IMG/VR virus record: IMGVR_UViG_2734482540_000012
From: a virus
Lineage: Duplodnaviria > Heunggongvirae > Uroviricota > Caudoviricetes
Strand: one strand, 5' to 3'
Length of the DNA: 5,350 bases
The position numbers and the translations under genes were made by a program. Under the pieces are notes generated by a model that was given only the letters and a program-made list of their open reading frames with translations, did not search any database and was not told the DNA's origin. Positions 56 to 5,350 of the stretch are shown here, one piece after another; within the stretch, counting starts at the first letter, position 1; each line of letters opens with the position of its first letter.

Positions 56-244
56 TTAAAAAAAGAACAAATGGTAGTGTCCGCTATTGCCAGTACACCT
101 CAGGGTATAAGGGGTTATGGCCACCGGACTACCAAACGGCTGCCAGCCCTCTTTCAGTTTATGTGTCAGCTTTTCCGCAAGATCTGACGGCGGCGCCGCC
201 CTGACAACATCATAGTGTTTAAATGCCATGGTTCTTTCCACCAT
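56..244 (-). CDS. small hypothetical protein, phage-associated (KEGWQPFG core; possibly DUF1737-like, family name from memory)
   Basis: Minus-strand ORF with in-frame ATGs at 244 and 229. The ATG at 229 (MAFKHYDVV...) follows GGTGGAAAGA, a possible weak SD, so the true start may be 229. Central motif ...KLKEGWQPFGSPVAI... resembles small prophage proteins I recall; no search possible. Confidence 0.4.
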   Translation of the reverse strand: MVERTMAFKHYDVVRAAPPSDLAEKLTHKLKEGWQPFGSPVAITPYTLRCTGNSGHYHLFFF

Positions 245-489
245 CTGAAAAATAATTCTTTAAAATACCTGACATGTAATACAGAAAAAACACAAAACCA
301 TACCTTAAATAAAAACCTGATTATCAAGCAGATATGCATGGATAAACTACAAGACGAGATATAAACCACCCTGCATTTAAATAAACAATAAACAACATCA
401 GAAAAATAATTCTGCTCTATGGTTTACATTCAAAAATATCATTTATACTTTTCAGAACATCACCAGCAAGGCATAAACAAGGAAACTAA

Positions 490-825
490 ATGAAGTGGAT
501 TGTGATTGATACAGTTATCCAGCCATCATGCGGAATATCTTTTTCAGTCATATGGAGTAAAATAAAATTAATAATCTGGTATCAATCGGATGCTTTCTTA
601 CCTCCTGAAAGTATATTTACACTGACTCACACAGGCATCATGCTCAATAACAAAGTGCTACCTGTAACCATTTACAACGTAGTACCATTCAATAAAACAT
701 TCTGGAATTCAATCAAAAATAGCCAGGAATGCCCTACAAATACAGATAACGTATTGAATGAATGCTTTAATAACCGTTGCACTCTGCAAATATGTCCTTA
801 TGGACTAAAACAACAAAGTCCATAA
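490..825 (+). CDS. hypothetical protein, AT-rich orphan, Cys-rich C-terminus
   Basis: ATG at 490 preceded by AAGGA (479-483) with a 6-nt spacer. 111 codons in visibly low-GC sequence, including 6 ATA codons. Four Cys in the last ~30 residues ([26 protein letters not shown]). Possible sigma70-like elements upstream (TTTACA at about 425-430). No family recognised. Confidence 0.4.
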
Positions 826-860
826 GGAGTTTACTCACATCTGACAAAATCAATATAAAC

Positions 861-880
861 AGCCCCTCCGGAGAGGGGCT
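861..880 (-). terminator. GC-rich hairpin (8-bp stem AGCCCCTC/GAGGGGCT, 4-nt loop); candidate minus-strand intrinsic terminator
   Basis: Perfect 8-bp stem seen directly. On the minus strand it is followed by GTTTATATTGATTTTG (T-rich). On the plus strand it is followed by GGAGAGTGGCGC (no T-tract), so termination is plausible only for leftward transcription. Confidence 0.3.
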
Positions 881-1272
881 GGAGAGTGGCGCTATGTGCC
901 ATTGCATGGTGCCGGGTGCCTCCCGGTGAATTCAGTACCAGCACCTGAATCCGCGATTATCCCATATACCTACTCGCTGATTGCCCCTCCGCACAGGGGG
1001 ATTCACCATGCCAGTTTCTTTTAACAAACTCCCCGCAAACCAGACAACAGTCAACCGCCTGAATTGTGAAGTATTTAAAAATTTCTCCCGCTAACTGATA
1101 CCCGGCTAACAGTCTGGCGTTTTCTTTTTCAGCAACGGGAAAGCAACAACCACCACACCCGCCACCAGCACACCGTCAGCCAGCACTGACATTATCCGGC
1201 TGCTGCAATGCCATTCACAAAAACAGTAAGCAATCACTTTTTACCGTAACAGGTGATAATCCAGATATGTAT

Positions 1273-1599
1273 CTACCCCAGATGAGTAATCCGAAGTTCA
1301 TCCATACCACAGGTCCTGGCTATTCTGTTGTACTCCTGAACAAGAGCAAATAATTCTGAATTAGCAACCATGAACTCATCGCAAACCCTCTGTATAGCAT
1401 CACTATTCAGAATAATAACGTCTCTTCCCGAAAGACGATCAGGAGTACAGAACAAAACTGTCAAACGGCTGAAGGCCTTTGCTCGTGCTGCATTGACTAT
1501 ATCAATACGCTGCCTAAGGATGAAACACCCCGACGCCTCATCAATATTCACTCTACCCACACCATATGAATGATAAATATTTAATGCTGAAAAAACCAT
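1273..1599 (-). CDS. hypothetical protein in the cargo position downstream of the phage tRNAs
   Basis: Minus-strand ORF; the track's longest form starts at a TTG (1626), first ATG is at 1599 (MVFSALNIYHSYG...). No convincing SD. 108 codons from the ATG include 3 AGA, 3 AGG and 3 ATA. Could be a remnant or non-coding; no family recognised. Confidence 0.35.
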   Translation of the reverse strand: MVFSALNIYHSYGVGRVNIDEASGCFILRQRIDIVNAARAKAFSRLTVLFCTPDRLSGRDVIILNSDAIQRVCDEFMVANSELFALVQEYNRIARTCGMDELRITHLG

Positions 1600-1736
1600 T
1601 AGACCGTATAACAAACACTCAATCAATACTTAACAGAACTTTTATTTTTGACAAACATAAAATATTTTCAACAATATCCTGAGCCAGGTATATTTCAGTA
1701 TAAGGCTCTGCCGGAAGGAATCTGGAAGAATGAATA

Positions 1737-1813
1737 TGGCGCGCTGTACTGGATTCGAACCAGTGACCGATTGCTTAGAAGGCAATTGCTCTGTCCGGCT
1801 GAGCTAACAACGC
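1737..1813 (-). tRNA. tRNA-Arg (anticodon UCU), CCA encoded
   Basis: Reverse complement reads GCGTTGT-TA-GCTC-AGCCGGACA-GAGC-A-ATTGC-CTTCTAA-GCAAT-CGGTC-ACTGG-TTCGAAT-CCAGT-ACAGCGC-G-CCA. 7-bp acceptor stem (one G.U), 4-bp D stem, 5-bp anticodon stem, loop CTTCTAA gives anticodon TCT, canonical TTCGAAT T-loop, encoded CCA. Resembles E. coli argU as I recall it; argN/argO-type phage tRNA. Confidence 0.9.
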
Positions 1814-1913: not shown

Positions 1914-1989
1914 TGGTGGCCCTTGCTGGATTTGAACCAGCGACCTGGCGATTATGAGTCGCTCGCTCTCACCACTGAGCTAAAGGGCC
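1914..1989 (-). tRNA. tRNA with CAU anticodon, most likely tRNA-Ile2 (lysidine, ileX/ileZ-like) rather than tRNA-Met
   Basis: Reverse complement reads GGCCCTT-TA-GCTC-AGTGGTGA-GAGC-G-AGCGA-CTCATAA-TCGCC-AGGTC-GCTGG-TTCAAAT-CCAGC-AAGGGCC-A-CCA. Full cloverleaf with one A.C mismatch at 27:43. Anticodon CAT. Very close to the E. coli ileX sequence as I recall it, and Stx-type lambdoid phages carry ileZ here. Ile versus Met cannot be settled from the anticodon alone. Confidence 0.85.
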
Positions 1990-2024: not shown

Positions 2025-2052
2025 CAATAAAAAACCCGCTCGGCGGCGGGTT
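2025..2052 (-). terminator. rho-independent terminator downstream of the Q-like gene (tR'-like)
   Basis: Minus-strand RNA would be AACCCGC-CGCCGA-GCGGG followed by UUUUUUAUUG. GC stem pairs 2035-2039 with 2046-2050 (extendable by two A.U pairs), and a 6-U run is encoded by plus-strand A's 2029-2034. Lies about 40 nt after the Q stop and about 35 nt before the tRNA-Ile 5' end. Confidence 0.55.
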
Positions 2053-2091: not shown

Positions 2092-2946
2092 TTATGACGA
2101 ATTTACCACAGATTCCGGAAAAATCAACCTAGTTACCTTTTTTAACTGCCGCTCAGCCCATGCTTCTTCAATATCAAACCGAGTCACCAGCGCATCATAG
2201 AATTTCTTAACTGTTTTTTCCCATGACGCGCGTGTTATCTGGTTTGTCACCTCGCATATAGCATTAAATGCCTCCGTTGATGGTAGTCTTTCATAGCCAC
2301 GACCACCACAACGCTGGCAGTCTCTGATAACAGGCATACCACGTTTTACCGACTCTTCACGATGAATGGCGACACCACGCCCACGGCAATCCTTACAGGC
2401 GGTGGAAACCTCACCCTTTCCGCCACACTCCGGACAGGCAACTTTTACCACCTCCCTGACTTTTTTCCATTCTTCCCAGTAAGACGGATACACACCTTTC
2501 GTACACTTTGCCCATACCGGCGGCTTACCATCCGGATACTGGACCTTGTTTGTAAAAACTACGCTTTCAATAAATTTTTCCCCATAGCAACAAGGGCACT
2601 GCTTTTTACTCGCTGCGCTGCGGGCATAATCCTCAAAAGCGTACGAAGCCATAATGCGCATCACTACCGGTTTTATTTCTGCCGGAAGTTTTCTCAACGC
2701 CGCCACACGATCGCACCGACTGAGTGCATAATCTGCCAGTAATTCTGTTGCCCGCGCCCTGTCATTCATACTGATGCCCATTTTCCCCAGGAACGCAGAA
2801 AACCCCATCTCAGCCCGATTCTGTGTCATGCCCTGCGCGGCCATCACATCAGTGATACTCAGCGCATCTTTTGACGTTGAGGCCGATGCATCGGTCAGGC
2901 AAGGGGATTTTGGGGAGTAGTATTTCGGTAAATCTTCCAGTTTCAT
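2092..2946 (-). CDS. putative late antiterminator Q-family protein with DnaJ-type CxxCxGxG zinc-finger repeats
   Basis: 284-aa ORF. Its ATG overlaps the rusA stop (ATGA). It sits immediately downstream of rusA and upstream of terminator and phage tRNAs, the canonical Q position. Contains CPCCYGEK, CPECGGKG, CKDCRGRG and CQRCGGRG. Family assignment from context and memory, no search. Confidence 0.7.
   Translation of the reverse strand: MKLEDLPKYYSPKSPCLTDASASTSKDALSITDVMAAQGMTQNRAEMGFSAFLGKMGISMNDRARATELLADYALSRCDRVAALRKLPAEIKPVVMRIMASYAFEDYARSAASKKQCPCCYGEKFIESVVFTNKVQYPDGKPPVWAKCTKGVYPSYWEEWKKVREVVKVACPECGGKGEVSTACKDCRGRGVAIHREESVKRGMPVIRDCQRCGGRGYERLPSTEAFNAICEVTNQITRASWEKTVKKFYDALVTRFDIEEAWAERQLKKVTRLIFPESVVNSS
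2100..2127 (-). promoter_or_regulatory. candidate late promoter (pR'-like) overlapping the 3' end of the Q-like gene
   Basis: Minus-strand TTGATT (plus 2122-2127), 16-nt spacer, TAAATT (plus 2100-2105). A start near the Q stop codon would give a short roughly 50-60 nt transcript ending at the 2025-2052 terminator, analogous to lambdoid pR'-qut-tR'. Pattern match only. Confidence 0.2.
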
Positions 2947-3317
2947 TTTTTGACCTGCTCTTCATGCATTATGGGGTAAATCTTCACCCCCAGACGTCCA
3001 CCAGATACTGGCTGACCACGAACGATATTGATTTCATCAAACTGCTCATCGTCCATTAACACTCCCGCATGTGTCAGTGCATCCAGTGGTGCTTTCAGGA
3101 TATTGTCCAGGTCACGACGGCGCTTATCCGGTGGCTCTGCAATAATCTTTATCGCCAGTCTTCCGGACAGGCTTAATTTCAGTCGCTGCTGACGGACAAT
3201 AAGCGCCACATCCCGGCGATAACGCTCACCGGCTTTTGATACAAAATATGTGTTGTCACGACGTCGCCAGTAAGTATTCACCGTCGGCGGATAAGGTAAA
3301 ATAAACTCATGGCGCAT
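2943..3317 (-). CDS. rusA: RusA-family Holliday junction resolvase (crossover junction endodeoxyribonuclease)
   Basis: 124 aa. Shares the LPxPPxxNxYxR N-terminal motif, the PDxRRRDLDNxxKAxxDALTxAG catalytic core and the C-terminal GGRL motif with E. coli RusA as I recall it. Start overlaps the upstream ORF stop (ATGA) and its stop overlaps the Q-like start. Confidence 0.9.
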   Translation of the reverse strand: MRHEFILPYPPTVNTYWRRRDNTYFVSKAGERYRRDVALIVRQQRLKLSLSGRLAIKIIAEPPDKRRRDLDNILKAPLDALTHAGVLMDDEQFDEINIVRGQPVSGGRLGVKIYPIMHEEQVKK

Positions 3318-3694: not shown

Positions 3695-3850
3695 TAGACT
3701 GGCCCCCTGAATCTCCAGACAACCAGTATCACTTAAATAAGTGATAGTCTTAATACTAGTTTTTAGACTAGTCATTGGAGTACAGATGATTGATGTCTTA
3801 GGGCCGGAGAAACGCAGACGGCGTACCACACAGGAAAAGATCGCAATTGT
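3695..3850 (+). mobile_element. IS2 left-end fragment (positions 1-156 of IS2, including IRL and the first 21 codons of insC)
   Basis: Begins TAGACTGGCCCCCTGAATCTCC, the IS2 left terminus as I recall it. All 156 bp are identical to 4361..4516 in this window. Identity stops abruptly after GCAATTGT at 3850. Confidence 0.85.
3786..3850 (+). pseudogene. insC: insC remnant (first ~21 codons of IS2 OrfA, then read-through into IS21-family sequence)
   Basis: ATG at 3786 is at the same offset (+91) from the IS2 terminus as the insC ATG at 4452 in the second copy. Encodes [22 protein letters not shown], then diverges. Confidence 0.6.
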
Positions 3851-4394
<544 letters not shown>

Positions 4395-4451
4395 TCACTT
4401 AAATAAGTGATAGTCTTAATACTAGTTTTTAGACTAGTCATTGGAGTACAG

Positions 4452-4817
4452 ATGATTGATGTCTTAGGGCCGGAGAAACGCAGACGGCGTACCACACAGG
4501 AAAAGATCGCAATTGTTCAGCAGAGCTTTGAACCGGGGATGACGGTCTCCCTCGTTGCCCGGCAACATGGTGTAGCAGCCAGCCAGTTATTTCTCTGGCG
4601 TAAGCAATACCAGGAAGGAAGTCTTACTGCTGTCGCCGCCGGAGAACAGGTTGTTCCTGCCTCTGAACTTGCTGCCGCCATGAAGCAGATTAAAGAACTC
4701 CAGCGCCTGCTCGGCAAGAAAACGATGGAAAATGAACTCCTCAAAGAAGCCGTTGAATATGGACGGGCAAAAAAGTGGATAGCGCACGCGCCCTTATTGC
4801 CCGGGGATGGGGAGTAA
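4452..4817 (+). CDS. insC: IS2 transposase OrfA (InsC), helix-turn-helix DNA-binding component
   Basis: ATG at 4452 ([41 protein letters not shown]...), stop TAA at 4815-4817. Matches IS2 InsC from memory. The ORF track begins earlier at an in-frame GTG (4407). Confidence 0.9.
4769..4775 (+). other. A AAA AAG slippery heptamer: programmed -1 ribosomal frameshift site giving the OrfAB (InsCD) fusion transposase
   Basis: AAAAAAG at 4769-4775 near the end of insC, where the insD frame opens (GTG at 4775). A6G motifs are the established frameshift signal of IS3-family elements. Confidence 0.6.
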
Positions 4818-5289
4818 GCTTAGTCAGCCGTTGTCTCCGGGTGTCGCGTGCGCAGTTGCACGTCATTCTCAGACGAACCGATGACTGGATGGATGGCCGC
4901 CGCAGTCGTCACACTGATGATACGGATGTGCTTCTCCGTATACACCATGTTATCGGAGAGCTGCCCACGTATGGTTATCGTCGGGTATGGGCGCTGCTTC
5001 GCAGACAGGCAGAACTTGATGGTATGCCTGCGATCAATGCCAAACATGTTTACCGGATCATGCGCCAGAATGCGCTGTTGCTTGAGCGAAAACCTGCTGT
5101 ACCGCCATCGAAACGGGCACATACAGGCAGAGTGGCCGTGAAAGAAAGCAATCAGCGATGGTGCTCTGACGGGTTCGAGTTCTGCTGTGATAACGGAGAG
5201 AGACTGCGTGTCACGTTCGCGCTGGACTGCTGTGATCGTGAGGCACTGCACTGGGCGGTGACTATCGGCGGCTTCAACAGTGAAACAGT
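4775..5289 (+). pseudogene. insD: IS2 transposase OrfB (InsD), 3'-truncated (about 171 of about 301 codons retained)
   Basis: Frame encodes [21 protein letters not shown]...[22 protein letters not shown] (track shows M at the GTG), then leaves IS2 at 5289 and ends SAPVI-stop at 5308. The InsD region downstream of ...NSETV (in my recollection of IS2, continuing ...QDVMLGAVERRF... and the DDE catalytic region) is absent from the window. Confidence 0.85.
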
Positions 5290-5350
5290 GTCAGCGCCAG
5301 TGATATAAGACGGTAATTCGCCATTTGGATTGTCCGCTCCACCCAACATG

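Follow-up and report, generated by a model that had tools for sequence, protein, structure and literature searches.

The closest described relatives of the gene studied here are anti-adaptors of RssB, the response-regulator-type adaptor that delivers sigma-S (RpoS) to the ClpXP protease. IraM (YcgW) of Escherichia coli K-12 is induced by Mg2+ starvation. In its complex with RssB, IraM bridges the receiver and pseudophosphatase domains and occludes the sigma-S-binding alpha4-beta5-alpha5 face (Brugger et al., PMC10844676). In the same work, a relationship of the IraM fold to PmrD was reported, the crystallized construct was devoid of residues 79-107, and the tail of the protein was described as less conserved, flexible, and proteolytically unstable (PMC10844676).

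The iraL gene was named and characterized in 2014 in strain CFT073, where it is located in the potB prophage. [quoted passage not shown] Deletion of iraL shortened the log-phase half-life of sigma-S in CFT073 from approximately 5 to approximately 2.5 min, and the respective deletion in Shigella sonnei lowered log-phase sigma-S (PMC4045071). In K-12, a fragment that extends from -100 to the last base of the coding sequence and includes the native promoter suffices to raise sigma-S (PMC4045071; equivalent to positions 357-825 of the DNA analyzed here). IraL protein is increased in a fur mutant, and iraL mRNA at 37 °C is up by 1.6 log2. RssC of Salmonella is an anti-adaptor similar to IraL and IraM, with approximately 47-49% identity according to the authors' ClustalW comparison of the genes (PMC4045071).

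Two further relatives are relevant. PmrD, an 88-aa protein activated by PhoP, binds the receiver domain of phosphorylated PmrA, and thus shares with the IraM/IraL family the binding of a response-regulator receiver domain. In Stx2c/Stx2a-converting phages (for example, gp43 of phage 1717, and phage 2851), an IraM-like gene is placed directly downstream of stx2B and the small RNA STnc100, in the same slot, in the same antisense orientation, and with the same STnc100 pairing as the gene presented below. Its product keeps the four C-terminal cysteines and its promoter region can be aligned with that of our gene. Most phage records leave this gene unannotated, and no experimental work on it was found.

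Identity and Prophage Setting of the iraL Gene

The window, that is, the whole stretch of 5,350 nucleotides that was analyzed, carries an ORF at 490..825 which, with a probability of about 95%, is iraL, acting as an RpoS-stabilizing lysogenic-conversion gene (moron) of a lambdoid prophage. The gene as such is already known from the work in CFT073. The coordinates of all features are given in table 1.

Table 1. Features of the window, in order of position
Feature	Position	Strand	Basis or remark
DUF1737 gene	56-244	-	
iraL promoter	423..449	+	-10 TATACT 444-449; best -35-like TTTACA 423-428; positions inferred from the published TSS and the sequence
TSS A457 and 33-nt 5′ UTR	457..489	+	5′ RACE match; contains AAGGA 479-483
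iraL coding sequence	490..825	+	111 aa, ATG start; RssB anti-adaptor, Shigella-type S74 allele
Residues 1-78, PmrD-like beta-barrel and helix, RssB-binding core	490..723	+	AF2, Foldseek, hhalign, contact residues
Cys4 tail, residues 81-105, CP-x9-C-x4-C-x4-CPYG	730..804	+	Alignment; AF2 pLDDT 56-71
Prophage sRNA STnc100	851..1040	-	Rfam RF02076, 132.4 bits against a gathering score of 47
9-bp GC-rich hairpin	860..881	.	35 nt past the iraL stop
DUF3927 gene, 43 aa	1106-1237	-	As annotated in relatives
117-aa ORF	1273-1626	-	phrog_2873 (unknown function), E = 3.8e-70, residues 10-117
tRNA-Arg(TCT)	1737-1813	-	
tRNA(CAT)	1914-1989	-	ARAGORN: tRNA-Met
tR′-like canonical intrinsic terminator	2033-2052	-	Approximately 40 nt past the stop codon of Q
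Antiterminator Q	2092-2946	-	
RusA	2943-3317	-	
IS21 istB fragment	3909-4388	-	Between the truncated first IS2 copy and the longer IS2 copy (to approximately 5290)

The deduced protein is identical to IraL of CFT073 (C_RS06710, c1429, WP_000871291.1) in 110 of 111 residues. In the published definition, a gene belongs to the iraL class if its nucleotide identity with CFT073 iraL is 95% or more across the complete coding region and 96% or more in the promoter (PMC4045071). The gene of the window falls within this class, with 334 of 336 coding nucleotides identical, three differing positions in the upstream region (245-489), and a match in 31 of 32 bases at the transcription start. Its nucleotide identity to genes of the iraM class is only approximately 70%. 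At the protein level, it shows 61% identity with K-12 IraM over 107 residues without gaps, shares all five of its cysteines, and carries four extra C-terminal residues; the sequence match to the crystallized IraM(1-78) chain of PDB 8TWD has E = 6e-31.

Family membership is also given by the curated model NCBIfam NF007393 ("anti-adapter protein IraM"), which covers residues 1-110 with 162 bits, above its cut-off of 121. The sequence-only reading had treated the ORF as an orphan of no recognizable family. This is corrected here, since the ORF encodes IraL, of the IraM/IraL/RssC anti-adaptor family, in which the structure of a homolog has been solved. In a Pfam-A scan, IraL had no family and only a sub-threshold match to Nairovirus NSm, and K-12 IraM had no match.

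The single substitution of the protein relative to CFT073 IraL is L74S. It adjoins contact residue 75 and lies within the helix that carries it. Approximately 1000 contigs carry the exact S74 protein, which is recorded as "IraM [Shigella sonnei]" and "MULTISPECIES [Shigella]". This allele, taken with the IS2 and IS21 remains at 3695-5290, would point to Shigella as the probable source of the window.

Homologs are widespread. In a megablast search with positions 200-1300, matches were found in 2860 of 5426 complete E. coli genomes, with the RefSeq label "anti-adapter protein IraM". Copies that span 80% or more of the ORF are present in 4749 of the 5426, and all 40 rows sampled evenly down the match ranking are annotated IraM. 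Loss of the reading frame in relatives, which had been named as an outcome that would speak against a true gene, is therefore not what was seen. Copies of the iraL type, at 90% nucleotide identity or more, occur in approximately 1440 of these genomes; in approximately 3330, the sole copy is in the band of 60-80% nucleotide identity, mostly of the iraM class at approximately 70%. A third class (approximately 77% nucleotide and 73% amino acid identity to iraL) is found in O157:H7 and in Stx2c/Stx2a-converting phages. The dN/dS between the paralog classes is approximately 0.10-0.15, with dS near saturation. A genome labeled E. coli ECGI0523 contains a relative (L011 3001-3318) with 32% identity to IraL, which may represent a further divergent paralog class within Escherichia. 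A search for related loci with the narrow family alignment yielded seven.

As to its setting, iraL occupies a cargo slot of lambdoid prophages between Q, the tRNAs, and the DUF3927 gene on one side and the DUF1737 and lysis genes on the other. RusA, Q, the two tRNAs, DUF3927, and DUF1737 are all on the minus strand, so the orientation antisense to the phage late genes noticed earlier is correct. The GC content is 28.6% in 245..489 and 34.5% in the ORF, against approximately 49% in both flanks and 47.2% in the window. Position between phage genes and deviating GC content both characterize iraL as a prophage moron. In relatives, the same slot holds genes with a TolA C-domain, and in Stx phages stx2 and a SASA esterase.

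The arrangement agrees with that of CFT073, where the order is Q, tRNAs, DUF3927, iraL in antisense, DUF1737, and holin. The two prophages differ in that the one in the window is truncated by IS2 and IS21 and has two tRNAs where CFT073 has three. In detail, a 156-nt left end of IS2 type occurs twice with 100% identity (3695-3850 and 4361-4516), and, from approximately 3695, nested insertions of IS2 and IS21 stand in place of the prophage early genes. The window as a whole was absent from all complete E. coli genomes searched.

Several neighbors deserve comment. The equivalent of the tRNA(CAT) gene is annotated as tRNA-Ile in E. coli 042 and CFT073, and the gene is presumably of the lysidine-modified Ile2 type. 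The DUF3927 ORF, another small cargo gene in the slot of iraL, has a match (E = 8e-13) to phrog_1470, [quoted passage not shown]. At the place equivalent to the 117-aa ORF, between the DUF3927 gene and the tRNAs, neither E. coli 042 nor CFT073 has an annotated CDS; the ORF is probably a genuine gene of the late region, with its start at an internal Met. The terminator downstream of Q is at the position expected for the tR′ of a late operon. In lytic growth, the late transcripts that depend on Q and come from upstream of 2052 would be antisense to iraL.

Fold and RssB Contacts

Structure prediction with AF2 was poor with an alignment of 12 sequences (pLDDT 55) and reached a mean pLDDT of 83.8 with a family alignment of 48 sequences. 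In the latter model, the mean pLDDT per block is 87-96 within residues 1-80 and falls to 56-71 within residues 81-110. The structure search by Foldseek placed the model on IraM bound to RssB (8TWD_A; TMt 0.90, rmsd 1.2 Å, 77 columns), again at odds with the earlier impression that no family could be recognized. The next matches were PmrD entries (2JSO, 4HN7, and 2RQX; probability 1.00, TMt 0.71-0.75), and nothing else was significant. A comparison of PmrD with the IraL family profile by hhalign gave a probability of 85% and E = 6.6e-6. These results agree with the reported relationship of the IraM fold to PmrD.

At the sequence level, PmrD shows only 13-20% identity to IraL, and its profile match ends at residue 79, before the four-cysteine tail. 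The Pfam model of PmrD (PF11183.13; hmmscan, E <= 10) gave no match for either IraL or K-12 IraM, and E. coli PmrD itself scored 158.9 bits. Judged by this model, IraL appears as a remote relative of PmrD and not as a member of its family. Precomputed matches to PF11183.15 are listed for nearly all IraM/IraL homologs, and the model seems to have been widened between the two versions.

Of the 15 published IraM residues in contact with RssB, 11 are identical in the protein of the window and the remaining four show conservative changes. In contact cluster I, which faces the RssB receiver domain, all five residues (I4, I6, W22, K26, and I42) are identical. Cluster II retains C14, F18, and W30 with the changes T13S and L75I, whereas cluster III retains I61 and Y62 with the changes H63N and I64V; P66 is identical. 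[quoted passage not shown]

A signal peptide had not been seen in the sequence-only reading, and this is consistent with the model, in which the first 11 residues make up one strand of a cytoplasmic beta-barrel and touch RssB. The same position of the N-terminus rules out a secreted Cys-rich peptide or toxin.

Promoter, Mode of Action, and Alternatives

The ORF ends with a TAA stop codon (823-825). The Shine-Dalgarno sequence is separated from the ATG at 490 by the 6-nt spacer AACTAA, and, together with the GC values, this bears out the earlier description of an AT-rich ORF with its own ribosome-binding site. In log-phase CFT073 lysogens, the transcription start of iraL was mapped by 5′ RACE to an mRNA end reading ACATCACCAGCAAGGCATAAACAAGGAAACCA (Hryckowian et al. 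2014, PMC4045071). This end matches positions 457-488 of the window, and the start is therefore placed at A457, with TATACT as the -10 element and a leader of 33 nt. The spacer between TTTACA and TATACT is 15 nt, which is non-canonical. The promoter region has the same sequence in CFT073 and E. coli 042.

The earlier claim of plausible promoter elements holds through these published data and not through the sequence scan that was performed. In detail, a consensus promoter scan returned six sites against 5.1 expected, that is, the chance level, and missed the true promoter, so that the sequence by itself does not suffice to define the elements. Folding of the 5′ leader gave no significant structure (z = +1.06). 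With its own sigma-70 promoter and ribosome-binding site, an AT-rich composition, and an orientation opposite to the late operon, iraL has the autonomous moron arrangement proposed previously.

According to the proposed mode of action, iraL mRNA would be made from this sigma-70 promoter, starting at A457, and the AAGGA Shine-Dalgarno sequence would direct its translation into a cytoplasmic protein of 111 aa, residues 1-78 of which are predicted to fold as a PmrD-like beta-barrel and a helix. This core would bind RssB, at least at the alpha4-beta5-alpha5 face of the receiver domain, and RssB would then no longer deliver sigma-S to ClpXP. As a result, sigma-S would be stabilized while the lysogen grows exponentially, and its general stress regulon would be raised. 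[quoted passage not shown] The copy in the window is probably active, because the gene is intact, because the promoter is approximately 98% identical to the tested one, and because the exact protein is a widespread Shigella allele in a genus where, in S. sonnei, deletion of iraL has a phenotype.

It is nevertheless conceivable that an intact-looking ORF in a degraded prophage ridden with insertion sequences is a silent or non-functional remnant, either unexpressed or unable to bind RssB. The interruption of the early region by IS2 and IS21 fragments means that phage-encoded regulators of iraL could be missing, the annotation of relatives has the DUF1737 neighbor as a truncated pseudogene, and L74S falls in the helix bearing contact residue 75. 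However, the ORF, the promoter, and the Shine-Dalgarno sequence are intact, with approximately 99% identity to the CFT073 locus that was tested, dN/dS is clearly less than 1, and the substituted protein is the very allele shared by the approximately 1000 contigs and the multispecies Shigella entry. Together with the sigma-S phenotype of the S. sonnei deletion (PMC4045071), this makes a remnant very improbable. Just as improbable is a behavior of the IraM type, that is, a gene that is not expressed in log phase and responds to Mg2+ starvation by way of PhoPQ. The name given by RefSeq and NCBIfam is that of IraM, and a GGTTTA hexamer, which we take to resemble a PhoP half-site, overlaps the -35 region of iraL. 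Against this, the 245 nt upstream of the ORF have no meaningful alignment to the region upstream of K-12 iraM and are near-identical to the CFT073 iraL promoter, and an iraM-type gene under PhoP control was rejected on account of this unrelated upstream region. The published transcription start was determined during log phase, and the sequences of iraL and iraM fall into separate classes without overlap (PMC4045071).

The least probable of the alternatives is that the main target is another response regulator, as PmrA is for PmrD, or that the protein has a phage-directed role apart from RssB. The relationship of the fold and the profile to PmrD could be read in this way, and so could the entry of the family in PHROGs (phrog_4407) as being of unknown function. 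The low identity to PmrD and the full conservation of the IraM residues contacting the RssB receiver domain argue for RssB, as do the published binding of IraL to RssB and the phenotypes in the RssB pathway (PMC4045071). The gene is accordingly retained as iraL, encoding an anti-adaptor of RssB.

The Cys4 Tail and the STnc100 Neighbor

The cluster of four cysteines noticed earlier at the C-terminus, for which disulfides or metal binding had been suggested, is present. They are residues 81, 92, 97, and 102, the peptide then quoted corresponds to residues 81-102, and a fifth cysteine is at position 14. In a family profile search against 1.84 billion representative proteins, 95 clusters were obtained at E <= 1e-3. 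All four tail cysteines are found in 49 of the 61 relatives of suitable length, down to 20% identity; the 12 relatives without the full set look like truncated or frameshifted gene calls for the most part. The motif of the family is C-x10-C-x4/5-C-x4-CP[YF]G, with C-x10-C-x5-C-x4-C as the commonest spacing. In the alignment of 48 sequences, the only invariant columns are W72, C81, C92, C97, and C102. On the other hand C14, a contact residue in IraM, is a cysteine in only four of 62 aligned sequences.

The tail is dispensable for a stable complex with RssB, since the IraM crystal construct was made without it. A profile of the tail alone, compared with PDB sequences, matched only CCCH fingers of the TIS11 type, with E = 0.96-3.7. 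A CCCH (C3H1) zinc finger was rejected on this ground, as there is no significant match and the likeness is one of spacing only. In the IraM and IraL papers, no statements on zinc or cysteine were found for the tail beyond the remark on its being less conserved, flexible, and unstable. That description, and the lack of the tail in the crystal construct, may be the reasons why it was overlooked. Tentatively, and with the odds rather against it, the four cysteines could form a metal-binding (Zn knuckle or Fe-S) or redox-sensing module that would set the stability or activity of the anti-adaptor.

The gene downstream of iraL is STnc100, which is convergent with it and ends at the shared hairpin (860-881). 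In the terminator scan, this hairpin was an intrinsic terminator on the minus strand only, reading CAGCCCCTC-TCCG-GAGGGGCTG followed by TTTATATTGA. The tested segments fold on both strands (-25.6 and -24.7 kcal/mol); on the plus strand, there is an A-rich run before the hairpin and no T-run after it. The hairpin is a canonical intrinsic terminator of STnc100 on the minus strand, and a possible bidirectional stop that would serve iraL as well. In relatives, the RefSeq annotation of the stretch corresponding to STnc100 is instead a pseudo "hypothetical protein" on the plus strand (approximately 897-1022 of the window).

The convergent pair of an iraL-type gene and STnc100 is also found in E. coli 042, E. 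albertii, and the Stx2-converting phage 1717. It is absent beside the Citrobacter homolog and beside K-12 iraM, which differs from iraL of the window in lying next to e14 and lacking the STnc100 neighbor. A 2026 preprint on Pas sRNAs discusses STnc100 and does not mention iraL. Both the convergence of iraL and STnc100 in prophages and the conservation of the tail in the family seem to be unreported. The two genes might form a co-inherited module with antisense interplay at their 3′ ends, although this is a smaller possibility than a functional module formed by the four cysteines. The pairing next to stx2 in Stx phages merits a short follow-up.

For annotation, the value of the present result is that the ORF should be labeled iraL (RssB anti-adaptor) and not an orphan; PHROGs and many records of Stx2 phages leave the family unannotated. 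The Cys4 tail is the sole part with some potential for a new result and would merit follow-up by those who work on RpoS proteolysis. If the Cys4 module is true, the stabilization of RpoS would gain an extra post-translational input. In a broader sense, the iraL family lets temperate phages raise the general stress response of their hosts.
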